Positions 1,902 through 27,828 of a stretch of 28,061 nucleotides of DNA are shown here, one piece after another (the first letter of the stretch is position 1; each line of letters starts with the position of its first letter). The stretch is from a virus (taxonomy: Duplodnaviria > Heunggongvirae > Uroviricota > Caudoviricetes): IMG/VR virus record IMGVR_UViG_3300036956_000151; one strand, 5' to 3'. The notes beneath the pieces were generated by a model. The model was not told where the DNA came from, ran no database searches, and saw nothing but the letters and a program-made list of their open reading frames with translations. A program made the translations under genes and the position numbers.

Positions 1902-1978
1902 GGGCCGTTAGCTCAGTTGGTTAGAGCAGGCGACTCATAATCGCTTGGTCGCTGGTTCAAGTCCAGCACGGCCCACCA
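1902..1978 (+). tRNA. tRNA with CAU anticodon; anticodon and T arms match what I recall of enterobacterial ileX (tRNA-Ile2, lysidine type) better than elongator tRNA-Met; 77 nt including encoded CCA
   Basis: Acceptor stem GGGCCGT/ACGGCCC, D-arm TAGCTCAGTTGGTTAGAGCA, anticodon loop CTCATAA, T-arm GGTTCAAGTCC, 3' CCA; sits directly after rpoD as ileX does in E. coli. Confidence 0.9.
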
Positions 1979-2656: not shown

Positions 2657-2803
2657 ATGAGCAGCCGCGAGATTGCGGAGCTAACGGGCAAGTGTCACGG
2701 CAACGTGAAGCGGACCATCGACACCTTGTCTGCCAAGGGAGTTATCCCTTTCCCTCATGCTGAGGAAAAGGCTACTGCGGGCCGTCCGCCGCTTGGCCTC
2801 TGA
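2657..2803 (+). CDS. Short ORF (48 aa) resembling only the N-terminal DNA-binding region of Rha/antirepressor-family phage proteins; possibly a truncated remnant
   Basis: MSSREIAELTGKCHGNVKRTIDTLSAKGVI matches the Rha-type N-terminal motif (SxEIAEL-GK-H-NV-R-I); no obvious SD. Confidence 0.4.
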   Translation: MSSREIAELTGKCHGNVKRTIDTLSAKGVIPFPHAEEKATAGRPPLGL

Positions 2804-2994: not shown

Positions 2995-3016
2995 AAAAAC
3001 CCGGCGCTTGGCCGGG
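2995..3016 (-). terminator. Rho-independent terminator for the minus-strand gene 3054-3371 (CCCGGC-N5-GCCGGG followed by T5 on the minus strand)
   Basis: Hairpin plus A5 on the plus strand, about 40 bp past the stop codon. Confidence 0.5.
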
Positions 3017-3053
3017 TCTGTCCGTAGTGGGTACTAAACTTCAGGCGACATCT

Positions 3054-3371
3054 CTACCCCTCGGGGGAGCCAAAGTTGCGCAAAACCACACGGGCTAGGC
3101 TGCTGGTGCTGCAAAAACGGTCCTCGATGGCTGACATGACCGAGATGTTCAAGTCCTCGATTCTTGCCGACAGCCCGCGAAGCAATAGGGACTCGTCAAA
3201 GTTCTCCGATGTAAACGTTTCGCGCAGCATTCGGCACAGCCTGTCGATTTCCCAGGTTGCTTCCAGTGCTATGTCTCGGCGAGCCATGGACATAACTATA
3301 TCGTCGCCCTCTTCGCGGAGGTCTTGGTTGGTTCCGGTTTGGGGAAGGCTATCTAGTGTCGTTGCTTGCAT
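3054..3371 (-). CDS. Hypothetical acidic protein, 105 aa (MQATTLDSLPQTGTNQDLREEGDD...)
   Basis: ATG preceded by AAGGAG at 7 nt; terminator downstream; the plus-strand ORF over the same DNA is Ser-rich antisense-like. Confidence 0.5.
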   Translation of the reverse strand: MQATTLDSLPQTGTNQDLREEGDDIVMSMARRDIALEATWEIDRLCRMLRETFTSENFDESLLLRGLSARIEDLNISVMSAIEDRFCSTSSLARVVLRNFGSPEG

Positions 3372-3580
3372 GGTGGCTGCTCCTTGTGTGCGGTGATGTT
3401 CTCCGCAACCCCTTCCTACGGGGGCGGCGGAACCGTGCGGGGCTAGGAATACCGGACACAAGGAACCGGCCAGCCTCGCGGCTGCCCCACACGGCCCGCC
3501 ATTGAACAGGCGTCGCCATGCTTACCGACGTAAAAAAACCGCTTGCGCGGCCCTGTCGGCCTTGTGATTTCCGGGTTCCT
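3372..3580 (-). promoter_or_regulatory. Conserved ~200-bp structured non-coding leader (module 1), homologous to 15029-15235 in element B; possible promoter/5'-UTR or small RNA
   Basis: Alignable by eye with element B (shared GTTCTCCGC, GAACCGTGC, CCATGCTTACCGACGTAAAAAAACCGC-type blocks); conserved stems with compensatory changes; ends in SD plus ATG. Confidence 0.4.
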
Positions 3581-3760
3581 ACGCCCGCCCCTCTGTTTCG
3601 GGGGAAACTGAATCATGGGGCAGGCCGCTCGTTTCAGTCAATATAAAAATGATAATGAAATAGATTGGCTTGCCATAAATTTCGCTTGTACCATCGGCAT
3701 ACGACCACGGGCGTCTCGCAAGATGCAGACTGGCGCTCGCTCAAGACACAAGAGGCCCAC

Positions 3761-4796: not shown

Positions 4797-4907
4797 AACG
4801 ACGGGGCCAAGGGGAGGCCTCGTAGTCGGCTGGGTTGGCGATGAGCGGGGGAGAAGCAGGCTTGGTTTCCAGGGTCGGTTTCCAGCAGAACAGACCTTTT
4901 TCGCCTC

Positions 4908-4977
4908 CTGAAACCTGAACATCTTTCAGCATTCGCCGTCATGCCGTGCGCTTTTCTGTGCGCGTTGCCGGCTGCAT
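4908..4977. repeat. ~65-bp direct repeat (TGAACATCTTTCAGCAT...GTGCGCTTT...TTGCCGG), second copy 5148-5217; iteron-like
   Basis: Two copies ~240 bp apart read directly. Confidence 0.55.
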
Positions 4978-5260
4978 TACATCGAGGACCGGGCCAGCCA
5001 TGCGGTCGATGGCCACCTTGTGTTGTTCTTCAGGATTCAGGATTCAGCCGGGCCGGCACAGTGCTAGCACCGGGCTTGCCCGGTACTGGGGCTGCTTCGC
5101 ACTGCGGCCTGACGTGAAGACGCCCTCCCGCCCGGTCGTTTTGCTTCGTGAAAAGTGAACATCTTTCAGCATCGCATCGGGATGCTGTGCGCTTTCGCGT
5201 GCGGATTGCCGGAATCGGGGCAGGGCCAGTGCCGTCCATCTTCTGGACGCCATCGGTAGC

Positions 5261-5499: not shown

Positions 5500-5771
5500 C
5501 TCTCTACGAGCGCGTTTGATGCGCCTGGCTACCTGCGCTTCCCTCAGACACGCAGTGCGTTCTTCGGTCTCCAGACGGGCGAGTGCACAGGCCATCCGGG
5601 CCAGGGTCAGAACTTACTGTTTCAGGCTGGCGGATTCTCGTTCCAGGGCGGCGAGTCGTTCAGCCTCCCCAAAACTCCCCAAAACCCCCCATTTATGGGT
5701 GCCGTCCTCCCCAAAACTCCCCACACCACCTTTAAGAGGTGGGGGGAAATGGGGACCATGTGGGGAATGGG

Positions 5772-7745
5772 TTACTTGAGCCACAGCCAGCCCTCCCGAA
5801 GGACGATGCAGCCACGGTTCACAAGTCCGGTAATGGCAAGCTGCGCCCTGTAACGTTTCTGGTCCGGGTCACATGCAAGGCGGGCGCGGGTCTTGTCGAT
5901 AGCCTCTTCCAGTTCAACGCAGGGCCGGCCAGGAGGTCCGCCAGCTTCCCCGAAGTGCCGCGACTCTTTCAGCAGGTCGCGCAGTGCGTCGAGGATGATT
6001 CGCTGATTCCCGCCGGTCGGCAGCTTCACCCGCCCCACGGCATCGGCGGCGCGCTCTTCGGGAACGACGCAGCAGCTTGTGATTTCGTCGCCGTCCTCGT
6101 CGGCCCCGATTTCCACCACTTCCAGCCGAAACGGTTTTCCCAGGTCGTCATTGCCATCCTTGCTCTTCGCGGCCGTCCATTCCCGGCGGTCGTCGGTGCG
6201 GCTCACCTCGATGGCGGCATCAAGCGCAGCGTGAAGGCTGGAATGCCCCCGCAGGCCCTTGGACGCATCCTTGCCGGTGTGATGCACCAGCAGCACCAGC
6301 CCGCCAAGCTCCGCCTGTAGCGCCTTCGTCGCGGCGATGATTTCGCCCATTGCGGCGGAGTCGTTCTCGTCGGCACCCGGCGCGGCGCGGTTCAGCGTGT
6401 CGAGGGCCAACACGCCACCCGAGTAACCGGCAGCGCGGGCGGCGCTCACAAGGTCGGCGCGGTCGGCAGCTTTGCGGATGTCGAGCGGTTGCAGCAGGAA
6501 GCGGAATGCGCCGGCAAGTGGGCCGTGTTTCTCTTGGTGCGCCTGGACGCGTTGCGAGATGCCGGCCTCACCCTCAAGGGCAACATACAGCACTGGGGCG
6601 GCCTTCACGCGGCACCCGAACCACGGCCGGCCAGCGGCGACAGCGGCGAGCATGTCGAGCGCCAGGAAGGATTTGCCGGACCCGCTTGGGCCATACAACG
6701 CGGCAATCCCTTCCTCCGGGAGCACACCACGCACCCGCCAGCGGACAGGGGGCAGCGCGGCCAGTTCAGACGGTGCCAGCAGCCGGAAGCGTTGCGAGTG
6801 CTTCTTCGGATTGGCCAGCAGTGCGGCCAGGGCGTCGAGGCCGTCCCGCTGGTGCATGTCGTTGGCGTCAAAGTTGGCGGGCGAGCCTTCCGGCATTTCC
6901 ACCCATGCGGCGGCGGTGTCCTTGGCGATGCGGGCGCAATGCGACTCCTTGCCGGCATCGGCCACCAACACCCGGCGGGCCAGCGGGTAGCGGTCGGCCA
7001 GCGCCTTGGATGCGGCTTCCATCCGGCCGGCACCGAAGCAGACCGCGGCCGGCGCGTTCGCGGCCTGGTGGCAGCTCCACGCCTGCCCGACGCCCTCGCA
7101 CAGGTAGAGCGTGACGCCTGCGCCCTGGTGCGGGATGCGCCCCACCACGAACAGGCCGTCCATCGGCAGGCCGGGGGCGTTCAGTTTCTTGCCATCGGCC
7201 GGCGGGATGAATTGCGCGCTCTTCAGGGTGCCGTCAATCGCGTAGCACGGCACCACGAGATAGCCGGCCACCGCCTCGCGGGCGATGGTCAGCGGGCCGC
7301 CATAGACGCGCAGGCCGGCGGGTAGGCCATGCTTGCGGGCAATGTAGCCGTGTTCCGCCGTCGCTGGTGCGCAGGATGCCCACAGGGCGGCCACGTCGAG
7401 CGGCGGAGCCTTGGACGGGGCTTCGTGCATCCGGCGCTCGGTCGTGCGTTGTGGGCGGTTCTGGTAAGTCTGGCGCGGTGCGTCGTCGCTCCATCCAGCG
7501 GCGCGGGCCAGTGCGAAGAGCGTACCGGCCTGGATGCCGCCATCCTCGCGGATGCTCCGCCAGACGGCGCGTGCGTCGGCCTCGTTGCGATAGTTGCCGG
7601 CTCCGGCGCTCCAGTCATGGAAGTCCTCGAAGTCGAGGCCGGCAGCCTTTGCAGCCATGCCAGCCCGGACCCATTCGGCGCGTTCGGCACCGGGGTCGAG
7701 GGCGTGCAAGGCAAAGCGGGCGCGGTCAAACTCGCGGGCATCCAT
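5772..7745 (-). CDS. Primase-helicase-type replication protein, 657 aa (PriCT-like N-terminus, Toprim-like centre, RecA-type ATPase C-terminus); ORF-track N-terminal 71 aa rejected
   Basis: MDAREFDRARFALHALDP...GLDFEDFHDWSAG; CEGVGQAW and VLVADAGKE; Walker A YGPSGSGKSFLALD and VLLVHHTGKD; ATG overlaps upstream stop (ATGA). Confidence 0.85.
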   Translation of the reverse strand: MDAREFDRARFALHALDPGAERAEWVRAGMAAKAAGLDFEDFHDWSAGAGNYRNEADARAVWRSIREDGGIQAGTLFALARAAGWSDDAPRQTYQNRPQRTTERRMHEAPSKAPPLDVAALWASCAPATAEHGYIARKHGLPAGLRVYGGPLTIAREAVAGYLVVPCYAIDGTLKSAQFIPPADGKKLNAPGLPMDGLFVVGRIPHQGAGVTLYLCEGVGQAWSCHQAANAPAAVCFGAGRMEAASKALADRYPLARRVLVADAGKESHCARIAKDTAAAWVEMPEGSPANFDANDMHQRDGLDALAALLANPKKHSQRFRLLAPSELAALPPVRWRVRGVLPEEGIAALYGPSGSGKSFLALDMLAAVAAGRPWFGCRVKAAPVLYVALEGEAGISQRVQAHQEKHGPLAGAFRFLLQPLDIRKAADRADLVSAARAAGYSGGVLALDTLNRAAPGADENDSAAMGEIIAATKALQAELGGLVLLVHHTGKDASKGLRGHSSLHAALDAAIEVSRTDDRREWTAAKSKDGNDDLGKPFRLEVVEIGADEDGDEITSCCVVPEERAADAVGRVKLPTGGNQRIILDALRDLLKESRHFGEAGGPPGRPCVELEEAIDKTRARLACDPDQKRYRAQLAITGLVNRGCIVLREGWLWLK

Positions 7746-8194
7746 CACATCACCCCCAGCACGCGCACGAAGGCCGCGACAACGGCGGCGGTCACGGATG
7801 CAGCGGCGAAGACAACGAGCGCGTCGAGGCTGATGGAACCGCGTTGCTGTCGTGCGTTCAGGGCGGCAGCGGTTGCCGGGTGCTGGCGGTCGAGCGCGTA
7901 CTCGGTGATTGTGCTGCGGCAATGGGGGCGGCGGATGTCGCGCTTGCAAAACGCCCACCCGCCATACTCCAGCGACTTAACTGACGCGGCCAGCCGCCAC
8001 CCGTCGCGGTAGTCGGCCTGGTTCTGCGGGCCGGTCAGCAGCGCCTGAAGGGCTTCGTAAGCCCGGGTGTTGTCGTTCGGCCAGCTTGCAGCTTCAACAG
8101 GCGGCAGCGTCTCGGGAAAGAGGTCTTGGGCGTTATAATGGCGAGGCTTGTCCAGGGCGCTCGACTTCTTTTTGGGGGTCGGGCGCTTTTTCAT
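7745..8194 (-). CDS. Hypothetical protein, 149 aa, basic N-terminus and hydrophobic C-terminal helix; coupled to primase gene
   Basis: ATGA overlaps at both ends. Confidence 0.6.
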   Translation of the reverse strand: MKKRPTPKKKSSALDKPRHYNAQDLFPETLPPVEAASWPNDNTRAYEALQALLTGPQNQADYRDGWRLAASVKSLEYGGWAFCKRDIRRPHCRSTITEYALDRQHPATAAALNARQQRGSISLDALVVFAAASVTAAVVAAFVRVLGVM

Positions 8195-9456: not shown

Positions 9457-9477
9457 CGCGCTCCTTCAAGCGCCTTC

Positions 9478-9552
9478 AAAAGAGGCACCGCGCCAGGCGG
9501 GTGAAGGTTCCCGCTTTTCGGTTGGCCGACCTAGGCGCGGTGGTGGTACTCG
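9478..9552. terminator. Conserved nested-hairpin element (module 2): outer stem CACCGCGCC/GGCGCGGTG enclosing inner hairpin GCGGG-N8-CCCGC plus T4; terminator-like in both orientations; homologous copy at 25028-25104
   Basis: Near-identical flanks in both elements; inner stem differs by compensatory changes (GCGGG/CCCGC versus CGGGG/CCCCG). Confidence 0.45.
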
Positions 9553-9553
9553 G

Positions 9554-9934
9554 TCAGGCGGCAATCGCCTCATTCAAGGGACACGGCTGAATCAGCACGT
9601 CAGCCGGGAGGCCGAGGCCAGAAGACAGGCGGCGAATCATCGTCACCGACAGCGGGCGCGTCCGGTTCATGATGTCGGCCACCCTCCCCCGCGGGCCGAT
9701 GTAAGGCTCCAAGTCCTTGCGCGTCAATCCGCGGGACTCCATGACGTACTCAAGGAAGGCCACCGGGTCCGGGGCTTTAATCAGGAAGTGCGCCTTTTCG
9801 TAGGCTTCCACCAGCATGGCGAGCACCTCCAGGCGGTCGGCCTCGGGGCTTCCATCAGGGGCATCCCACAGGCGTTCGATATCGGCCAGGGCTTCGTTGT
9901 GCTCGGCTTCGGTTCGGATGGGCTTCAGTTCCAT
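9554..9934 (-). CDS. higA: HigA-family antitoxin (HTH), 126 aa
   Basis: Immediately downstream of the HigB-type toxin gene; AGGAG SD; C-terminal HTH-like segment LTRKDLEPYIGPRGRVADIMNRTRPLSVTMIRRL. Confidence 0.8.
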   Translation of the reverse strand: MELKPIRTEAEHNEALADIERLWDAPDGSPEADRLEVLAMLVEAYEKAHFLIKAPDPVAFLEYVMESRGLTRKDLEPYIGPRGRVADIMNRTRPLSVTMIRRLSSGLGLPADVLIQPCPLNEAIAA

Positions 9935-9942
9935 GGCGGCTC

Positions 9943-10236
9943 CTAGATGGTTTCAGCGTCTATCCGGTCGTACTCGGCATGAGTGCCCACGAAACGGATG
10001 AACATCATGGTGGAGGTGTAACGCACAGCCGCCACCAACCGGTAGTCATTGCCCTTGATGTTGAACACCACGCGGTTGTTCGCCAGAAAGCTGGCGTTCC
10101 GGTGCGCGGCCTTGATGTCGGCCGGGGTTTGCCAGGTGGCCCGGCTTGCCTCGGCGTACCAACCACGCAAAGGGGTTTCGGCTTGCGGATGCTTCTCCCA
10201 AAACTCGCGCAGTGCTCGCAGTGCAATGATGTGCAT
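9943..10236 (-). CDS. higB: HigB-family type II toxin (mRNA interferase), 97 aa
   Basis: MHIIALRALREFWEKHP...NNRVVFNIKGNDYRLVAAVRY...IRFVGTHAEYDRIDAETI; toxin-first order. Confidence 0.85.
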   Translation of the reverse strand: MHIIALRALREFWEKHPQAETPLRGWYAEASRATWQTPADIKAAHRNASFLANNRVVFNIKGNDYRLVAAVRYTSTMMFIRFVGTHAEYDRIDAETI

Positions 10237-10319
10237 GACTCAATCTAGCATGTTACCGTTTTGGTAGCAAACACTCAGGCTTTCACCACCCGCAGCCCGG
10301 CCGCCTGCTCTTCGCCCGG

Positions 10320-10604
10320 TCAGGCGGCGATGCGTGCCACGGGTGCCCGGTCCTTGGCGCGCTCGCCGGCTGTCCAGAGGTCGCGCTGCGTTTGCAGGCG
10401 CAGCCAGTAGCCGGGCGAGGTGCCTAGCGCCTCGTGCAGGCGCAGGTCCATATCGGCGGTGACGGCGGCATGCCCGTGCAGGATGCGGGACAACATCACC
10501 CGGCTGATGCCCACATGGGCGGCAAAGGCGGTCACGCTCATATCGAGGTCTTCCAGCCAGCCGGCCAGGATTTCGCCAGGGGTTGAAGGGTCGTGCATGT
10601 CCAT
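10320..10604 (-). CDS. HigA-like antitoxin (XRE-type HTH), 94 aa
   Basis: PGEILAGWLEDLDMSVTAFAAHVGISRVMLSRILHG...ITADMDLRLHEALGTSPGYWLRLQTQRDL; follows the killer-protein toxin gene. Confidence 0.8.
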   Translation of the reverse strand: MDMHDPSTPGEILAGWLEDLDMSVTAFAAHVGISRVMLSRILHGHAAVTADMDLRLHEALGTSPGYWLRLQTQRDLWTAGERAKDRAPVARIAA

Positions 10605-10615
10605 GATGTCGGGCC

Positions 10616-10894
10616 TCAGTGGTAATCCAGATAGTCCAGCAGTTCCACGTTTCCGCCATCGAAGCGGAACACAAGCCGCCAGTTGGCTTGCACCGTCATG
10701 GCGAGGAAGCCGGCGCGGTCGCCGGACAGGCCATGCAGGCGCCAGGACGGGCGGGCGAGGTCTTCCGGGCCGGCGGCGGCGTTCAGGGCGGTCAGCATTT
10801 CCCGTAGGCGCTTGGCGTGAATCGGCTGAATGCCGGCCTGCTTGCCGGTCAGGAAGAAGGCTTCAAGCCCCTTGTGTCGGAACGATAGAATCAT
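10616..10894 (-). CDS. RelE/ParE-superfamily toxin of the HigB killer-protein type, 92 aa
   Basis: MILSFRHKGLEAFFLTGKQAGIQPIHAKRLREMLTALNAA...LLDYLDYH. Confidence 0.85.
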   Translation of the reverse strand: MILSFRHKGLEAFFLTGKQAGIQPIHAKRLREMLTALNAAAGPEDLARPSWRLHGLSGDRAGFLAMTVQANWRLVFRFDGGNVELLDYLDYH

Positions 10895-10925: not shown

Positions 10926-12242
10926 TCAGGTCACAACCCGCAACCCAGGCGCCTGCCCCTCGTCCGGCTGCTCGATGCCGGCCTGCTCCAGAATCCAGCC
11001 CTCTATCTTGATGTGCCACAGGGTCAGCAGGTCGAGCGGCCGGCGGCGATAGTGCTTCTCGGCCAAGGCGCTGGGCTTGTGCCCCTGAATCTGCGCCACC
11101 ACGCCGACGGGCACCTCGCACCACTCCGCCAGGGTGCCGAAGGAGCGGCGCAGGTCATGCAGCGAGAATGGCGGCAGGCCGGCGGCTTCCATCGCTTTGC
11201 GCAGGGGTTTGAGGACTTCCACGATACGGCCATCCGCGGCCGCAGGGCTTGAGAACACCCACTCATTCCGGCGCGGCAGAGAGGCCAGCAGCGAGGCGAC
11301 GAAGGGCGTCAGCGGGATGATGCGGCCCTCTTCCTCCACCTTGTCGGCGATGTGCAGGGACTTCCATTGAAAATCCACGTCAGCCCATTTCAGGCCGGCC
11401 AGTTCCTCGCGCCTCGCGCCGGTCAGGAGCAAGGTTTGCAGGTAGGCGGCGTGCACCGGGTTCCCCAGCTTGCGGACATGCTCGAACCACAGCGGCAATT
11501 GTTCGCGGCGCAGGCTGTCGCCTTTGGTCTTCACCGCCTGCACTTGGTCCCGCACTTCGCTGGTGCGGCAGGCATCCGCACGAACGAGGCCGGCATACTC
11601 CGGGCGCTCGGCACACCAGCCAAGGAAGGCGCGCACGAGGCGGAATATCTTTGCGGCCTGCGTCGCCCCGCGGGCGTTGTTGTCCTGCATCCATGCCGTG
11701 ATGCGTGCCGGGGTCAGGTCCAATAGGCGCACATGCAGCAGCGGATGTACCATGCCGGGCAAAGTGTATTCCCCCTGCCCAGCCTTGCGCCCTCGCGTGA
11801 TGCGCTCGCCGCCGGGCTTTATGGCCTGTGCATGGTCGCGCTGTGAGGACTCGCCCCACTTGTGCGAGCGGGCCAGAACATAGGCGGCCCATGCCTCGCC
11901 AACGGTCACTTCCTGCCGTGCGGACTCTTCCCGCTTGGCCTCGATGGCGGCGCGCTTGTCGGCCTTCTCTTGGCGCGGGTCGATGCCTTGGTCAATCAGG
12001 GTTTGCAGGCGGCGGGCTTCGGCGCGGGCTGCGTCAATGCCCCACGCGCGCACGTCGCCAATCGTGATGCGAAGAGCCTTGCCGTTCAGGCGGCTTTGGA
12101 AGATGAACCCGCGCGCCTCGCTGCCGGGTGTGGCACGCACTGCGAGGCCGGGCGCTTCCGTGTCCCACAGGAAGGCTTGAGCGGTGCCGGTCGGGCATTC
12201 AAATTCGCGGATGCGGCCGGCGGTCAGCTTGTTGCGTGCCAT
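10926..12242 (-). CDS. int: Tyrosine recombinase, P4-type integrase (element A); ATG at 12242 preferred over the ORF-track start at 12248
   Basis: ~438 aa; catalytic-domain blocks LTGARREELAGL, HDLRRSFGT, HKPSALAEKHYRRR; GGAGAA SD; adjacent to att copy 2. Confidence 0.9.
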   Translation of the reverse strand: MARNKLTAGRIREFECPTGTAQAFLWDTEAPGLAVRATPGSEARGFIFQSRLNGKALRITIGDVRAWGIDAARAEARRLQTLIDQGIDPRQEKADKRAAIEAKREESARQEVTVGEAWAAYVLARSHKWGESSQRDHAQAIKPGGERITRGRKAGQGEYTLPGMVHPLLHVRLLDLTPARITAWMQDNNARGATQAAKIFRLVRAFLGWCAERPEYAGLVRADACRTSEVRDQVQAVKTKGDSLRREQLPLWFEHVRKLGNPVHAAYLQTLLLTGARREELAGLKWADVDFQWKSLHIADKVEEEGRIIPLTPFVASLLASLPRRNEWVFSSPAAADGRIVEVLKPLRKAMEAAGLPPFSLHDLRRSFGTLAEWCEVPVGVVAQIQGHKPSALAEKHYRRRPLDLLTLWHIKIEGWILEQAGIEQPDEGQAPGLRVVT

Positions 12243-12256
12243 GTTCAAGTTCTCCG

Positions 12257-12406: not shown

Positions 12407-12502
12407 ACTCATAATCGCTTGGTCGCTGGTTCAAGTCCAGCACGGCCCACCATACGTATCAAGCACTTAGGCCAGCCTCACGAGGGCTGGCCTTTTGCTT
12501 TC
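12407..12502 (+). repeat. att direct repeat copy 2 (junction between element A and element B); tRNA 3' half only, no 5' half
   Basis: ACTCATAATCGCTTGGTCGCTGGTTCAAGTCCAGCACGGCCCACCA plus terminator; preceded by unrelated AT-rich sequence. Confidence 0.85.
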
Positions 12503-12510
12503 CGGCGCCG

Positions 12511-12529
12511 TGTAGCCACCATGTAGCCA
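12511..12529. promoter_or_regulatory. Two TGTAGCCA octamers at left end of element B; candidate arm-type sites
   Basis: Same motif at 27389-27425 (three copies, one inverted) upstream of the element B integrase. Confidence 0.4.
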
Positions 12530-12872: not shown

Positions 12873-13071
12873 TTAAAACCTGGTGAACGTGGGGCCTCGT
12901 TCGCAGAACGACACGCCCGGCCGCCGAGGGCCTGCGTACTGTGCAGTCCCTCTCCGGGTCAGAACTTGGGCCTCGTTCGCAGAAACGGCACCTGATGCGA
13001 ATGAACTACTTCATAGCCCGCAAACCCCGCGTGCCCTAGGATGAAGGCTCCTTTTCTTTCCTGATAGATCT

Positions 13072-13260
13072 ATGGGTCCGATCTCCAAACCGTCCAGAAT
13101 CAGCCAATGGCGCGCCACCACTGCCGCCGGCGAAACCGAAGTCTTCAACCTCAAAATAATCGCCGACGACTGGGCGGGCGTCGGTGGCACGGTCGAAGCC
13201 GTGAATGCTGCCGACCAGAAGGCATTGCAAGGGGGTGGCAAAACACCACCCCATGAATGA
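13072..13260 (+). CDS. Possible small protein, 62 aa, unknown
   Basis: GC-rich third codon positions and non-repetitive composition; no clear SD. Confidence 0.25.
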   Translation: MGPISKPSRISQWRATTAAGETEVFNLKIIADDWAGVGGTVEAVNAADQKALQGGGKTPPHE

Positions 13261-13298
13261 GAACCCCGGCGCGTGACGGGGGCTGGTGGTGAGTCGCG

Positions 13299-13589
13299 TT
13301 ACTGGGTCCGTGCGTGGCCGCTGGGTGGCGGCAGAATGTCCGACAGGGGCAAACCCTGCGCCCAGGCGTGCAACTCGGTAAGAAGCCAGCCTATCCGGTT
13401 GCTCGACGTCTTGCGGGGCGCTGGGAACGTTCCCTTCAGCACCTGTGCGGCGATGTTCGACGGGCTGAGTCCCACAATCGTGCAGGTGGTGTCCCGGTCC
13501 ACGATGACAGGATCGATGTGAATCACCCTGGTGACCCGCAGCGTTCCGCCGCTGGGCGTGCACGCGGGGATCTTCTTCGGCCGTCCCAT
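13299..13589 (-). CDS. alpA: AlpA-family phage transcriptional regulator, 96 aa
   Basis: GLSPSNIAAQVLKGTFPAPRKTSSNRIGWLLTELHAWAQ fits the AlpA pattern; start coupled to upstream stop. Confidence 0.75.
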   Translation of the reverse strand: MGRPKKIPACTPSGGTLRVTRVIHIDPVIVDRDTTCTIVGLSPSNIAAQVLKGTFPAPRKTSSNRIGWLLTELHAWAQGLPLSDILPPPSGHARTQ

Positions 13590-13590
13590 T

Positions 13591-14058
13591 TCAGGTGCTC
13601 CCGGGTGCGTGGGCGGTCGCCTGGCGGCCACCAACGGCACGCAGTTCGTCGGAGAGGCTTAAGGCCTCCCGGGCGAGCGCCTGAAAGTCTGCCTGTGCTG
13701 GGGCCGACCCCGCAAGAAACTGATTGATCCTCCGCATGAGCGAATCTTGGCGCTGCTGGAGGTCCGCCAGGCCGGCAAGGATCACGTCCGCAAGGGGTGG
13801 GAGTTCTGCGCGATTCTCCCAGTCGTCAGCACGGCCGAGGAGGTAATCAGCTGAAACACCATAGACCCGCGCCGCATCGGCAAGCAGCTGGGGCGTGATT
13901 CCCTTTGGGTAGTTCGGATGCTCGGCGCGGGTCAAACGGGATGCACTCTTGATGCCAAGCCGCCGCGCGGCCTCGTCCGTGCCCAGGCATGCGATCTCGC
14001 GGGCGGATTTCAAGCGCTGGCCGACGATGCACTGCGCTACGGGTGGTCTCTTGCTCAT
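13591..14058 (-). CDS. XRE/Cro-CI-type HTH regulator, 155 aa
   Basis: HTH-like segment and motif ARVYGVSADYLLGRADD; paralogous to 20619-21212; AAGGA SD. Confidence 0.7.
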   Translation of the reverse strand: MSKRPPVAQCIVGQRLKSAREIACLGTDEAARRLGIKSASRLTRAEHPNYPKGITPQLLADAARVYGVSADYLLGRADDWENRAELPPLADVILAGLADLQQRQDSLMRRINQFLAGSAPAQADFQALAREALSLSDELRAVGGRQATAHAPGST

Positions 14059-14093
14059 GGTGGTGTCCTTCTCAATTCCAGCGTTTCAGGGGG

Positions 14094-14119
14094 CTGTGCG
14101 CCCGGTTGAAGGCGCACAG
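14094..14119. promoter_or_regulatory. Inverted repeat CTGTGCGCC-N8-GGCGCACAG between the 173-aa gene and the XRE regulator; hairpin or operator
   Basis: 9-bp perfect stems. Confidence 0.35.
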
Positions 14120-14135
14120 ATCCATCCCGCGGGTG

Positions 14136-14657
14136 TCAGGCGGCGTCGCGGCGATAGTTGCTGCCCACGTCTTCCGCTGTGCCGTTGACGAGATCCTGCA
14201 CGGTGCTGGCCATGTCGTGGATCGTCAGCAGGGTGCTATCGAGGTGCGGGCGCAGCGACTCAAGCTGGCCAGAGCCCGCGGCGGCCTTGGTGACCGCGGC
14301 AACGCCCGCGATCTTTCTTGCAGCCTCTTGAACGTAGAGATCCATCAGGTTAGCCGCGGTCTGCAGCTCACGAACCTTGGTCGGGGCGTTGCGGGAGGGG
14401 CAGAAGGCGTAGTCCGTGTCCTGGCAACCTACCACCGTGGCCTGTGCCTTGATATCTGCAGCGGAATCGCGAGCAAGGCCGATGATCGCGTCCATCGCGG
14501 TGCCAGTGCCGGCCGCATCGTCAGACTTAAGGGCGCCTTGTGCCGTGCGCACGAGGCCCATGATTGCGTCGGTGGCCTGTTGCGAATGGCGGTCAATCAG
14601 CTCGACGGTCTTCATCAGGGTGGCGAGGTTGGTGTTCTTGATGGTGGTGGTGGTCAT
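14136..14657 (-). CDS. Hypothetical protein, 173 aa, mostly helical
   Basis: GGAG SD; start 2 nt after upstream stop. Confidence 0.6.
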   Translation of the reverse strand: MTTTTIKNTNLATLMKTVELIDRHSQQATDAIMGLVRTAQGALKSDDAAGTGTAMDAIIGLARDSAADIKAQATVVGCQDTDYAFCPSRNAPTKVRELQTAANLMDLYVQEAARKIAGVAAVTKAAAGSGQLESLRPHLDSTLLTIHDMASTVQDLVNGTAEDVGSNYRRDAA

Positions 14658-14659
14658 GG

Positions 14660-15028
14660 TCAGGCGCTCCAGGCAAAGGAAAGACGATAGGCTGCTACGG
14701 GACCGGCAAGCCGGCGGATGGTGCGGTACATCGAGAGGGACGTGGCGAGGCGAGCGCGGCCGGGACGGCGCGCGGTGCGATCAGCGGCGGCGAGGGCCTG
14801 CTGTGCGGCCTCGAGCAGAGGGGCCGGCAGGAAGCTGTCAGCGCTGGTCGGACGCACGGGCGGGTAATCCATCGTCTCGGTGACGATGGCGCGCAGGGCG
14901 GACACGGGTGACGGTGCAGCAGGACGGGCACGGCCGATGCGGCGATGCGGGCCGCGAACAAGGGCGGGGCTGTGTTTGGGGCGTGAGGTGCTGCAGAGTG
15001 CGGGCGCACTGGGGGCGTGGGTAGCCAT
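14660..15028 (-). CDS. Possible protein, 122 aa, Pro/Ala/Arg-rich; start at the position homologous to the element A gene 3054-3371
   Basis: AAGGAA SD; low-complexity composition makes coding status uncertain. Confidence 0.35.
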   Translation of the reverse strand: MATHAPSAPALCSTSRPKHSPALVRGPHRRIGRARPAAPSPVSALRAIVTETMDYPPVRPTSADSFLPAPLLEAAQQALAAADRTARRPGRARLATSLSMYRTIRRLAGPVAAYRLSFAWSA

Positions 15029-15235
15029 GGTGATGTTCCTTATTTGCGGTCTTGTTCTCCGCTACCCAGCCGCCAAGCTGGGTGAGCAGAACCGTGCAGG
15101 TTGGCGGACCGGAATAAGGACCGGCAGGGTTTCCCCTCCCGCACGGCCCCGCCCAATGAGGCGATACCATGCTACGGACGTAAAAAAACCGCGCAGTGCG
15201 GCGGTTGTCCGCCTTATTTACCCGGGCCGCCAAGC
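15029..15235 (-). promoter_or_regulatory. Conserved structured leader (module 1), element B copy
   Basis: Homologous to 3372-3580; includes hairpin CCGC-N5-GCGG followed by A7 (terminator-like on the minus strand). Confidence 0.4.
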
Positions 15236-15442
15236 CCGTATCACCGTTGTTTGCAGCGACGAAAATATGATGCGCCTGGGCGCCGCTGGTGGTCAAGCAC
15301 TTATTTTGCATGTGTGGCGCCGGAGGGGAGGTGGACACATGAATCATGGGCGCCCGAGGACGGACACGGTAGGTGTCATTTCGGCCGGCGACACCCGCCT
15401 AAAATGGGTGGCCGCGGTAAGTCGAGCACGTCAGGCCGCCGA

Positions 15443-15466
15443 GGTGTCCTCAGTTTTGAGGACACC
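15443..15466. promoter_or_regulatory. Perfect palindrome GGTGTCCTC-AGTTTT-GAGGACACC; operator-like
   Basis: Homologous to the site upstream of the element A Rha-like ORF, but no Rha-like ORF follows here. Confidence 0.4.
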
Positions 15467-25001: not shown

Positions 25002-25027
25002 TCTCGCGCTCCATCTGCGCACCCATC

Positions 25028-25104
25028 GAAAAAGGCACCGCGCCAGCGGGGCGATGGAATCCCCGTTTTCGGTTGGCCGACCTAGGCGCGGTGGTGGTGC
25101 TCGG
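25028..25104. terminator. Conserved nested-hairpin element (module 2), element B copy
   Basis: Outer stem CACCGCGCC/GGCGCGGTG, inner CGGGG-N9-CCCCG plus T4. Confidence 0.45.
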
Positions 25105-26040: not shown

Positions 26041-27369
26041 TTACTTGACGGCCCTGAGGACTGTCGCGGCCCCCTCTGTCGGCTGCTCGATGCCGGCCTG
26101 TTCCAGAATCCACGCCTCAATCTTGATGTGCCACATACGTAGCAGGTCGAGGGGCCGGCGGCGGTAGTGCTTTTCAGCCAGCGCAGACGGCTTGTGCCCT
26201 TGAATCTGCGCCACCACGCCCACCGGGCATTCCACCCATTCGGACAGGGTGCCGAAGGAGCGGCGCAAGTCATGCAGTGAGAACGGCGGCAGGCCGGCGG
26301 CTTCCATCGCGTTCTTGTGGGGCTTGAGCGGCTCCTGGAGGCGGCCAGATGCCGCGGAGGGGCTGGAGAACACCCACTCATTGCGGCGCGGCAGGGCTGC
26401 CAGCAAGGCCGCAACATAGGGCGTCAGCGGGATGATGCGCTGCCCTTCCACTTTGTCCCGGATGGTCAGGGACTTCCATTGAAAATCGATGCAATCCCAC
26501 GTCAGGCCGGCGAGCTCTTCGCGGCGGGCTCCGGTAAGCAGCAGGGTTTGCAGGTAGGCCACGTGCACCGGATTGCCCAGCTTCCTGACGTGCTCGAACC
26601 ACAGCGGCAACTGCTCCCGCTGCAGGCTGTCGCCCTTGGCTCTGGCCGCCTGCACCTGGTCCCGCACTTCGCTGGTACGGCAGGCGTCGGCCCGGACAAG
26701 GCCGGCATACTCGGGCCGCTCGGCACACCAGCCAAGGAAGGCCCGCACCAAGCGGAAGTTCTTCGCTGCTTCGGTGGCCCCCCGGACGTTGTTCGCCTGC
26801 ATCCAGGCCGTTATGCACGCCGGCGTCAGGTCGATCAGGCAGACCGCCAGCAGCGGATGAACCATGCCCTGCAATGAGAACTCGCCCTGCCCCTTCTTGC
26901 GGCCTCGCGTGATGCGCTCGCCACCGGGCTTGATGGCCTTCTCGTGGTCCCGCTTGGACGATTCGCCCCACTTGTGGGAGCGGGCGGCAACGTAGGCGGC
27001 CCACGCCTCGCCAACGGTCACGGACTGGCGGCGCTGCTCTTCCTGCCCTGCCACCACTGCGGCCTTCTTGGCCTCCACTGCGGCCAGCTTGTCGGCTTTC
27101 TCCTGCCGGGGATCGGTGCCCTGGTCGACAACGGTTTGCAACCGGCGAGCTTCGGCGCGGGCATCGTCCAGGTTCCACGCCCGCACGTCGCCGATGGTTA
27201 CGCGGATTGTTTGCCGGTTTAGCTTGGCCTCGAAGATGAACGACTTCGCGCCCGTGGTCGCACGCACAGCGAGGCGCGGCGCGTCGGTGTCCCAGAGGAA
27301 GGATTGCTTGGCGTCGGCGGGGCAGGAGAAGCGGCGGATTCGGTCGGGCGTGAGGCGTTCGCGTTGCAT
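26041..27369 (-). CDS. int: Tyrosine recombinase, P4-type integrase (element B), 442 aa
   Basis: Collinear with the element A integrase with long identical stretches (HDLRRSFGT, VGVVAQIQGHKPSALAEKHYRRRPLDLL); GGAG SD; adjacent to att copy 3. Confidence 0.9.
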   Translation of the reverse strand: MQRERLTPDRIRRFSCPADAKQSFLWDTDAPRLAVRATTGAKSFIFEAKLNRQTIRVTIGDVRAWNLDDARAEARRLQTVVDQGTDPRQEKADKLAAVEAKKAAVVAGQEEQRRQSVTVGEAWAAYVAARSHKWGESSKRDHEKAIKPGGERITRGRKKGQGEFSLQGMVHPLLAVCLIDLTPACITAWMQANNVRGATEAAKNFRLVRAFLGWCAERPEYAGLVRADACRTSEVRDQVQAARAKGDSLQREQLPLWFEHVRKLGNPVHVAYLQTLLLTGARREELAGLTWDCIDFQWKSLTIRDKVEGQRIIPLTPYVAALLAALPRRNEWVFSSPSAASGRLQEPLKPHKNAMEAAGLPPFSLHDLRRSFGTLSEWVECPVGVVAQIQGHKPSALAEKHYRRRPLDLLRMWHIKIEAWILEQAGIEQPTEGAATVLRAVK

Positions 27370-27554: not shown

Positions 27555-27660
27555 CGACTCATAATCGCTTGGTCGCTGGTTCAAGTCCAGCACGGCCCAC
27601 CAATAGCATCAAGCACTTAGGCCAGCCTCACGAGGGCTGGCCTTTTGCTTTCCGGCGCCG
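27555..27660 (+). repeat. att direct repeat copy 3 (right end of element B); tRNA 3' half plus terminator, a few substitutions after CCA
   Basis: Same 46-nt tRNA 3' segment and terminator; shares the tail CGGCGCCG with copy 2. Confidence 0.85.
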
Positions 27661-27828
27661 GCATCCGGGAATGACAATAAAATTCTGCAGCGCAACCTGA
27701 ACCATCCAGAACGGCTGCAAAAAGTATGATGCAGCGCCGCAATCCATCACCTATAAAGGAGCATGTACCCGGGTTCGGCGCACTTCGCCCGGCCCCATTC
27801 TCACGACGCTGACATCCCGGAGAATTTC

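Follow-up and report, generated by a model that had tools for sequence, protein, structure and literature searches.

We describe two RNA-based regulatory cassettes of the C4 antisense RNA family in the 28,061-nt stretch of DNA held in IMG/VR virus record IMGVR_UViG_3300036956_000151 (hereafter the window, to which all coordinates refer). One lies in each of two tandem islands, termed here elements A and B. Very probably each is a complete immI-type riboregulatory cassette, transcribed from its own promoter on the minus strand and functionally equivalent to CI of P4 and to IsrK-STnc1160 of Gifsy-1. Support comes from a match to the RNA family, the secondary structure, promoter and terminator signals, a fourfold complementarity in which segments a′ and b′ of the C4 RNA fit targets a1 and b1 upstream and a2 and b2 downstream, the position of b2 over the Shine-Dalgarno sequence, and recognition codes that differ between the copies. 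A first-pass annotation had proposed a shared structured module in these places; the strand, the family identity, the self-contained organization from promoter to ribosome-binding site, and the recognition loops differing along with their targets go beyond it.

That annotation placed the module at 3372-3580 and 15029-15235, and stated that the two ~200-bp regions align although the genes downstream encode unrelated proteins. Both statements are borne out. Smith-Waterman alignment of the two regions on the minus strand gave a score of 87, with 146 of 207 columns identical, whereas 300 dinucleotide-preserving shuffles scored 18.0±2.3 with a maximum of 28. The similarity is local: the downstream genes (3054-3371 and 14660-15028) align at shuffle level (18 versus a shuffle mean of 18.4), BLASTP of their two proteins against each other gave no alignment, and a further 250 nt upstream of both regions scored 17 versus 17.2. 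The proposed limits were too narrow, however; the conserved unit spans promoter to start codon, 3369-3641 in A and 15026-15296 in B (~270 bp).

Searches against Rfam, a check proposed at the outset, identified C4 antisense RNA (RF01695, gathering score 45 bits) on the minus strand in both copies over the full model (positions 1-87), scoring 67.5 bits in A (3420-3506) and 48.1 bits in B (15078-15160). Both C4 cores have the Rfam structure as their minimum-free-energy fold (z = -2.9 in A and -3.0 in B). At relaxed thresholds the upstream halves matched the Hfq-binding RNA isrK (RF01394, gathering score 50 bits), again over the full model, with 43.8 bits (E 1.9e-8) at 3532-3604 and 44.6 bits (E 1.4e-8) at 15182-15260. 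Both copies have the arrangement that marks IsrK, namely two 5′ hairpins and a Rho-independent terminator, followed 25-30 nt later by C4. PMC4825925 describes IsrK as structurally homologous to P4 seqA and compares STnc1160 with CI. The C4 core together with an IsrK-like upstream half supports the pointer to P4-type RNA immunity made in the first-pass annotation.

Read along the minus strand, each cassette consists of the promoter, hairpin H1, hairpin H2 (with a1 in its loop), b1, hairpin H3 overlapping the 5′ arm of the terminator, a run of seven U (U7), a short box, C4, a hairpin presenting a2, hairpin H5, b2 and the ATG. The features of copy A are:

3612-3641, minus strand: sigma-70-like promoter from a promoter scan (-35 TTGACT at 3636-3641, 18-nt spacer, -10 CATGAT at 3612-3617)
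3532-3606, minus strand: IsrK/seqA-like leader (isrK 43.8 bits; H1 and H2 covary)
3588-3606, minus strand: hairpin H1
3572-3587, minus strand: hairpin H2, whose loop holds target a1 UAGGAA (3576-3581)
3560-3566, minus strand: target b1 CACAAGG
3549-3561, minus strand: hairpin H3, GGCC-GACAG-GGCC, present in the minimum-free-energy fold
3532-3552, minus strand: terminator stem GGCCGC/GCGGUU and U7 run, overlapping H3
3524-3529, minus strand: GUCGGU just past the U-run, complementary to GCCGAC at 3555-3560 (long-range helix in RNAalifold)
3420-3506, minus strand: C4 antisense RNA (RF01695, 67.5 bits), a closing stem enclosing hairpins P2 and P3
3471-3484, minus strand: C4 hairpin P2
3451-3470, minus strand: C4 hairpin P3, whose loop is b′ UUCCUUGUGU (3456-3465)
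3444-3449, minus strand: single-stranded a′ UUCCUA
3369-3424, minus strand: target region, in which a hairpin (3409-3424) shows a2 UAGGAA in its loop (3413-3418)
3390-3406, minus strand: hairpin H5
3380-3389, minus strand: b2 ACACAAGGAG, covering the Shine-Dalgarno sequence and free of pairing in the minimum-free-energy fold, with 8 nt between it and the ATG (3369-3371)

Those of copy B are:

15267-15296, minus strand: sigma-70-like promoter (-35 TTGACC at 15291-15296, 18-nt spacer, -10 CATCAT at 15267-15272)
15180-15260, minus strand: IsrK/seqA-like leader (isrK 44.6 bits, c4-a1b1 21.6 bits; also from terminator scan and folding)
15240-15260, minus strand: hairpin H1
15223-15238, minus strand: hairpin H2, with a1 UUGGCGG (15227-15233)
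15212-15218, minus strand: target b1 AAUAAGG
15200-15213, minus strand: hairpin H3, GGCGG-ACAA-CCGCC
15187-15206, minus strand: terminator AACCGC/GCGGUU followed by the U7 run (terminator scan)
15174-15179, minus strand: GUCCGU past the U-run, complementary to GCGGAC at 15207-15212
15078-15160, minus strand: C4 antisense RNA (RF01695, 48.1 bits; fold equal to the Rfam structure)
15113-15120, minus strand: b′ loop UCCUUAUU
15101-15107, minus strand: a′ CCGCCAA
15026-15082, minus strand: target region, with the a2 hairpin at 15065-15082 and a2 UUGGCGG at 15070-15076
15046-15062, minus strand: hairpin H5
15037-15044, minus strand: b2 AAUAAGGA, covering the Shine-Dalgarno sequence, with 8 nt between it and the ATG (15026-15028)

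The recognition codes are a1 UAGGAA / a′ UUCCUA / a2 UAGGAA and b1 CACAAGG / b′ UUCCUUGUGU / b2 ACACAAGGAG in A, and a1 UUGGCGG / a′ CCGCCAA / a2 UUGGCGG and b1 AAUAAGG / b′ UCCUUAUU / b2 AAUAAGGA in B; all four recognition elements changed in concert between the copies. Cognate pairing runs (b′-b1, b′-b2, a′-a1, a′-a2) are 7, 9, 6 and 6 nt in A and 7, 8, 7 and 7 nt in B, whereas cross runs between A and B are 2-6 nt. Further targets of this kind were not seen: the b2 8-mers of A and B are absent elsewhere in the window except as the complement in b′. Because a′ and b′ of each copy mismatch the targets of the other, the tandem elements should be independently regulated (heteroimmune); judged by these sequences, cassettes A and B should not cross-react.

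Relatives of the cassettes show the same tracking of recognition segments and targets. A strict DNA pattern built on the conserved U-run box found three viral contigs; a looser pattern was then used, with many unrelated terminators filtered out, and a gapped pattern yielded 63 loci in a set of species-representative genomes. Their hosts are nearly all Betaproteobacteria (Zoogloea, Burkholderia, Paraburkholderia, Pandoraea, Accumulibacter, Nitrosospira) with a few Gammaproteobacteria, and the cassettes closest to the window copies are in Zoogloea genomes. After de-duplication 93 cassettes were aligned with MAFFT. Of 16 relatives sampled for an Rfam check, every one passes the C4 threshold, and in five the sequence immediately upstream passes that of isrK as well. 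Eighty of the 93 have a promoter agreeing with the consensus at 8 or more of its 12 positions; in 65 of those 80, exactly 7 nt separate the end of the -10 element from H1.

The 93 cassettes contain 65 distinct b′ loops and 25 distinct a′ sequences. Pairing of b′ was scored by position-restricted runs counting Watson-Crick pairs only, with 2000 permutations, since MAFFT loses the register of the variable-length b′ loops and b′-b1 and b′-b2 pairs could not be counted by column. Mean cognate and non-cognate runs were 6.56 and 3.24 for b′-b1, 7.78 and 3.66 for b′-b2, 6.85 and 3.49 for a′-a1, and 6.86 and 3.52 for a′-a2; none of the 2000 permutations reached the cognate means. By column, a1-a′ pairing across relatives is 97.8% with 140 double changes, and a′-a2 pairing 98.0% with 134 (~35 in shuffles for each). 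RNAduplex energies of a′ and b′ probes against wide target windows, and runs tolerating G-U, were also tried and were dropped as too noisy because the GC-rich flanks pair promiscuously.

The structure within the cassette is likewise held by compensatory change. In the 93 cassettes 91.8% of the cells of the cis structure are paired (81.2% after column shuffling), and double-sided changes affect 537 cells (154 after shuffling); these controls ignore relatedness among the cassettes. Sliding the partner by 1-3 columns leaves at most 46% paired. Hairpin P2 of C4 has changes on both sides in five of its five pairs. G-U cells number 559 and A-C cells 60, an excess which argues that the structure belongs to the minus-strand RNA and not to duplex DNA. 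The covariance analysis in homologues that had been called for at the outset therefore comes out in favor of an RNA: stems are kept despite substitutions by pairing-preserving changes, as had been claimed from the two copies, and the pairs between a′/b′ and their targets covary as well. Together with the C4 match above the Rfam threshold, this upholds the claim of a functional RNA or complex regulatory region.

Around the terminator a long-range helix (alignment columns 76-81/124-129) is 99.8% paired, with one compensatory change, G-C to C-G, in the A-type group. We observed that the box ACGUC(C/G)GU directly after U7 is nearly invariant and complementary to GC(G/C)GAC in the 5′ arm of H3; the helix that they form encloses the terminator and would form solely in read-through RNA, where it may serve as a lock or as a processing signal. 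Beyond the start codon, 53% of cassettes have a hairpin with 5 bp or more at 10-48 nt into the first open reading frame (ORF), versus 16% of shuffled segments, which suggests RNA-level constraints inside the first ORF. Examples from relatives (alignment columns ~341-360) are GCGCG-UCC-GCGC and GCUC-GUCCU-GAGC; copy B has AGUGC-GCCC-GCACU at 14997-15010 (minus strand), and copy A is without such a hairpin.

Folding points to a switch in the leader. In minimum-free-energy folds of the free leader H3 forms in 66 of the 93 cassettes and the terminator hairpin in 12; when b1 was made unavailable, as if paired to b′, the terminator formed in 70 and H3 in nine. With the last 2 nt of b1 left free the switch is largely lost (terminator in 23, H3 in 57). 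Both window leaders are predicted to go from H3 to the terminator once b1 is blocked.

Most likely these parts work together by riboregulation of the P1 immI / P4 CI type. The leader RNA would either end at U7, as a short IsrK-like RNA carrying a1 and b1, or read through, and the read-through RNA would be processed to a C4 RNA of ~80 nt; in P1 the cut is made by RNase P where the closing stem begins on its 5′ side. The C4 RNA that defines the family has ~77 nt and acts in trans as an immunity factor. Known C4 RNAs are processed by RNase P, with b′ occluding the ribosome-binding site and a′ giving specificity (PMC5320573, PMC11143913, PMC12197685). The 5′ arm of the closing stem begins with GG in both copies, AAU-GGCGGG in A and UUG-GGCGGGG in B, which resembles the RNase P-associated GGW site of PMC5320573, although this is a resemblance only. 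In the window, a′ of the C4 RNA would touch the loop of the a2 hairpin and the b′ loop would pair with b2, blocking ribosome binding at the first ORF; with this ORF untranslated, the downstream genes would be silenced through lost translational coupling or Rho-dependent polarity. Pairing of C4 with b1 on the nascent leader would in turn take two nucleotides from the antiterminator hairpin H3, so that the terminator would form and C4 would limit its own synthesis, as reported for the P4 terminator t1. A study by Briani et al. in 2000 in Mol Microbiol is reported to have found t1 to be CI- and seqA-dependent and autoregulatory.

A possible objection is that the same parts follow the logic of IsrK: the C4 part would act mainly in cis, within an inactive fold of the mRNA, and the short a1b1 RNA would activate the first ORF in trans by titrating the C4 part, which would make the cassette an inducer switch and not an immunity repressor. 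The upstream halves do match isrK with E ~1e-8 and end in a U7 terminator, a1 and b1 fit a′ and b′ as well as a2 and b2 do, the first ORFs vary, are short and in many cases run into the next ORF, and in Gifsy-1 the same arrangement acts as an activator through the short RNA and orf45-anrP translational coupling (PMC4825925). But the fold of the C4 core is that of a compact, autonomous domain which leaves a′ and b′ exposed, as is usual for RNAs processed to act in trans, and the homologues of P1/P7 and Acinetobacter baumannii are processed, abundant RNAs (PMC5320573). The sequence says nothing on which RNA species dominates, and the IsrK-type and P1-type logics are compatible in that the same parts could serve both; we hold the inducer switch to be unlikely, though far from negligible. 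Much less probable still is that the cassettes are decaying relics of an ancestral prophage, with no useful regulation left in such small islands. The cargo is near-orphan and without a recognizable antirepressor domain, a truncated Rha-type antirepressor fragment lies near the element A cassette, and copy A has no early-ORF hairpin of the sort found in about half of the relatives. Against decay, promoter, a1, b1, terminator, C4, a2 and b2 over a good Shine-Dalgarno sequence are all intact and mutually complementary in both copies, which is what makes a relic so improbable; moreover, copy A is identical in independent metagenome contigs, and B-type cassettes with the same first ORF are kept in several Zoogloea genomes. 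A non-RNA explanation, whether a small coding region or a DNA site such as an operator array, origin or recombination site, we regard as excluded for practical purposes, because the compensatory pairing is strand-specific (559 G-U to 60 A-C). Mechanical ORFs do cross the region on the minus strand (3054-3461, 3349-3519 and 3443-3616), but chance open frames are expected in such GC-rich DNA, indels in the 93-sequence alignment ignore the reading frame, and the covariance model, matched over its full length, rewards structure along with sequence.

The reading that we prefer, a complete immI-type cassette, has several points weighing against it. The C4 core of copy B is just 3 bits over the Rfam threshold, and both isrK-like halves (43.8 and 44.6 bits) fall below the 50-bit one. 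The Rfam model for the a1,b1 target (c4-a1b1, RF03163, gathering score 46.7 bits) reached 21.6 bits in B and gave no match in A; the a1/b1 complementarity is nevertheless present in both copies despite these poor scores. In copy B the b′-b1 and b′-b2 duplexes are short (7-8 bp) and A/U-rich. H3, the terminator and the long-range helix are each >96% paired and share a single compensatory event, and being nearly invariant they leave covariation unable to choose among the three; the antiterminator-to-terminator switch is a prediction from thermodynamic modelling. The controlled genes are near-orphans with no Pfam or PHROG match, not homologues of icd or ant. Finally, we infer the RNA ends, the processing, the action in trans and the direction of regulation from the sequence.

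The genes predicted to be under the control of the cassettes are:

3054-3371, minus strand: controlled gene of A, a single 105-amino-acid ORF (from translation)
2995-3017, minus strand: intrinsic terminator ACCCGGCCAAGCGCCGGGUUUUU ending the A operon (read from the sequence)
13036-15028, minus strand: controlled four-gene operon of B
14660-15028, minus strand: first ORF of B, 122 amino acids
14136-14657, minus strand: 173-amino-acid ORF of B, starting 2 nt after the stop of the 122-amino-acid ORF
13591-14058, minus strand: 155-amino-acid helix-turn-helix protein of B
13036-13563, minus strand: 175-amino-acid ORF of B

The 105-amino-acid protein of A has no Pfam or PHROG match and found only itself in a search of 5.8 billion proteins, and a homologue search with the 173-amino-acid protein of B gave just two related clusters. 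The 122-amino-acid first ORF of B is conserved in four Zoogloea loci (among them L130, L132 and L155). We noted in B-type first ORFs (14660-15028 in the window) a C-terminal motif, LYRV-RRLAGPV-AYRLSFAW, which makes up most of the 46-47-amino-acid mini-ORFs in two other Zoogloea cassettes (L135:6550-6690 and L188:4086-4229); the 122-amino-acid version carries an Ala-, Pro- and Arg-rich insertion of ~75 amino acids. Between the first ORF of A and L135, only MQATTL is shared. In relatives generally the first ORFs are short (~30-220 amino acids) and highly variable, often with a 1-23 nt overlap with the next ORF that suggests translational coupling. Nine of the 86 second ORFs of relatives have Rha, Bro-N, KilA-N or AntA domains. 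In the Pseudomonas aeruginosa temperate phage YMC11/07/P54 (NC_030909.1, L193 10824-10955) an unannotated isrK and C4 cassette (61.5 and 59.9 bits) lies directly upstream of a gene annotated as 'anti-repressor Ant', and we saw such cassettes, also without annotation, in about 20 other Pseudomonas phage records. By analogy, an antirepressor-like or helper-directed role for the window cargo may be guessed at.

Elements A and B are genuine tandem insertions at one tRNA-Met attachment (att) site. The window opens with rpoD (15-1892), followed by a tRNA-Met gene at 1902-1978 (plus strand), and the elements are bounded by three copies of a 119-nt direct repeat (1933-2051, 12407-12525 and 27557-27675), the first of which starts inside the tRNA-Met gene, just downstream of rpoD; copies 2 and 3 have 93% and 82% identity to copy 1. 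Element A is thus ~10.5 kb and element B ~15 kb. Each has a tyrosine integrase gene at its end (10926-12248 in A and 26041-27369 in B, both minus strand), the two being ~80% identical in DNA (repeat families D1, D2 and D4), and each has an int-alpA RNA (Rfam RF02996) on the minus strand, at 9473-9541 with 71.9 bits and at 25023-25092 with 63.0 bits. The Burkholderia relative L131 also carries an int-alpA RNA (3490-3557), ~1.6 kb from its C4 cassette. Element A has a PriCT_2/AAA_25 primase-helicase gene (5772-7958, minus strand), and element B encodes a replication initiator, a DnaB-like helicase, a KilA-N protein and a PmgG-like protein. The only virion-type matches are this PmgG-like head-morphogenesis protein of B and a secondary 'tail tube' match of a 301-amino-acid protein; beyond these two, no major capsid, terminase, portal or tail set was recognized among the part of the ORFs of A and B that was scanned. 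Lacking a recognized virion gene set, the elements look like satellite-like or defective islands.

Other contents of the islands were recorded in passing. Between the integrase gene and the int-alpA RNA of element A lie two adjacent HigB/RelE-type toxin genes (9554-10236 and 10240-10894, minus strand; Pfam HigB_toxin 1.5e-31 and HigB-like_toxin 8.5e-17), with a putative antitoxin ORF beside each. A 48-codon ORF of element A (2657-2803, plus strand) aligns with the Phage_pRha profile over profile positions 1-25 only (E 3.8e-5) and resembles a truncated gene for a Rha-type antirepressor; it converges with the element A C4 operon. The palindrome GGTGTCCTCAGTTTTGAGGA(C/T)AC, with 10-bp arms, occurs at 2585-2618 and 15432-15465 (repeat family D11; 82% identity over 34 nt). 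Its position in B is ~136 nt upstream of the C4 promoter, and in A it lies past the 3′ end of the C4 operon, just ahead of the Rha-like gene fragment; an operator is one possible reading of it, a leftover from a common ancestor another. Just downstream of the primase-helicase gene, at 5664-5730, are two copies, 42 nt apart, of the direct repeat CCTCCCCAAAACTCCCCA(A/C)A, iteron-like repeats which could mark a replication origin. A 34-nt repeat is present three times in element A (2253-2286, 4899-4932 and 5139-5172; repeat family D5); read on the minus strand as ATGCTGAAAGATGTTCA..., it is a recurring start-of-gene segment before small minus-strand ORFs of the element.

As a curated RNA family explains the finding, no new RNA class is proposed. 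What is unusual is modest: two orthogonal cassettes in tandem satellite-like islands, near-orphan cargo, and a possible antiterminator/terminator switch architecture. A regulatory cassette previously without annotation is now annotated, as it could be in the deposited Pseudomonas phage genomes that likewise lack it, and full P1/P4-type RNA immunity cassettes are found to occur in small integrative islands of Zoogloea-like Betaproteobacteria. The tandem orthogonal pair is a natural test case for heteroimmunity; the 93 cassettes, with 65 b′ loops tracking their targets, supply orthogonal antisense/target pairs ready for use; the b1-dependent switch from antiterminator to terminator that is predicted here can be tested directly; and the near-orphan genes under C4 control are candidates for functions in island-helper or island-host interaction. 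More speculatively, the antisense RNA might act at two levels in a betaproteobacterial subfamily of C4 cassettes: the b1-triggered flip of the conserved hairpin GGCGG-ACAA-CCGCC to the U7 terminator, with the ACGUCCGU box locking the read-through state, might be a general RNA-triggered attenuator, the island cassettes might gate fast-evolving orphan effectors against a helper phage or a co-resident island, and orthogonal a′/b′ codes might let two islands with near-identical integrases share the tRNA-Met site; we advance this combination tentatively and think it more apt to fail than to hold.

Among known systems, immI C4 of P1/P7 shares with the window cassettes the full-length covariance match, the architecture of two hairpins within a closing stem, a single-stranded a′ and a b′ carried in the loop of a hairpin, target pairs on the one transcript both before (a1/b1) and after (a2/b2) the RNA, a short first ORF whose ribosome-binding site is covered by b2, and a specificity that differs between related elements (heteroimmunity). 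The window cassettes differ in that their downstream genes are not icd/ant, a U7 intrinsic terminator stands between a1b1 and C4, RF03163 scores poorly, and the hosts are integrated islands of 10.5 and 15 kb and not a plasmid prophage.

For the CI system of P4 and phiR73 (seqA-cI-seqC, t1) we draw for mechanistic details in part on PMC4825925. Alike are a small RNA that in the window would likewise be processed from the leader of its own operon, complementary sites up- and downstream of it, a Rho-independent terminator sited between promoter and RNA gene, which in the window the RNA is predicted to strengthen in an autoregulatory manner, and a small integrative satellite-like element with a tyrosine integrase beside a tRNA gene. 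The P4 leader, however, precedes the replication operon (eps, alpha), whereas the window cassettes lie at the island end far from the primase and control one orphan gene (A) or a four-gene operon (B); the primase-helicase gene at 5772-7958 is 2.2 kb from the A cassette, in a separate transcription unit with an opposite-strand gene between. The label 'P4-type satellites' in the first-pass annotation can be applied to these elements only tentatively: tyrosine integrase, int-alpA RNA and replication genes agree with it, but the cassette is not upstream of the primase, and the P4 hallmark genes of sid, psu and delta type were not recognized in A or B, where part of the ORFs was scanned.

The IsrK-STnc1160-orf45-anrP system of Gifsy-1 (RF01394) resembles the window cassettes in its upstream half, with two hairpins and a terminator (isrK E ~1e-8 in the window), and in that read-through gives, or in the window would give, a C4-like RNA and leads into a short first ORF with coupling to the genes that follow. 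The window copies are just under the isrK gathering score, and homologues of AnrP and AntQ were not found in the window. The Group 1 C4-like small RNAs of A. baumannii, which RNA-seq shows to be processed from longer transcripts (PMC5320573), are likewise chromosomal and multi-copy with variable a′/b′ loops. They are dispersed small RNA genes proposed to have been co-opted for host targets, whereas each window element keeps the full phage-type cassette with its cis-linked targets and ORF.

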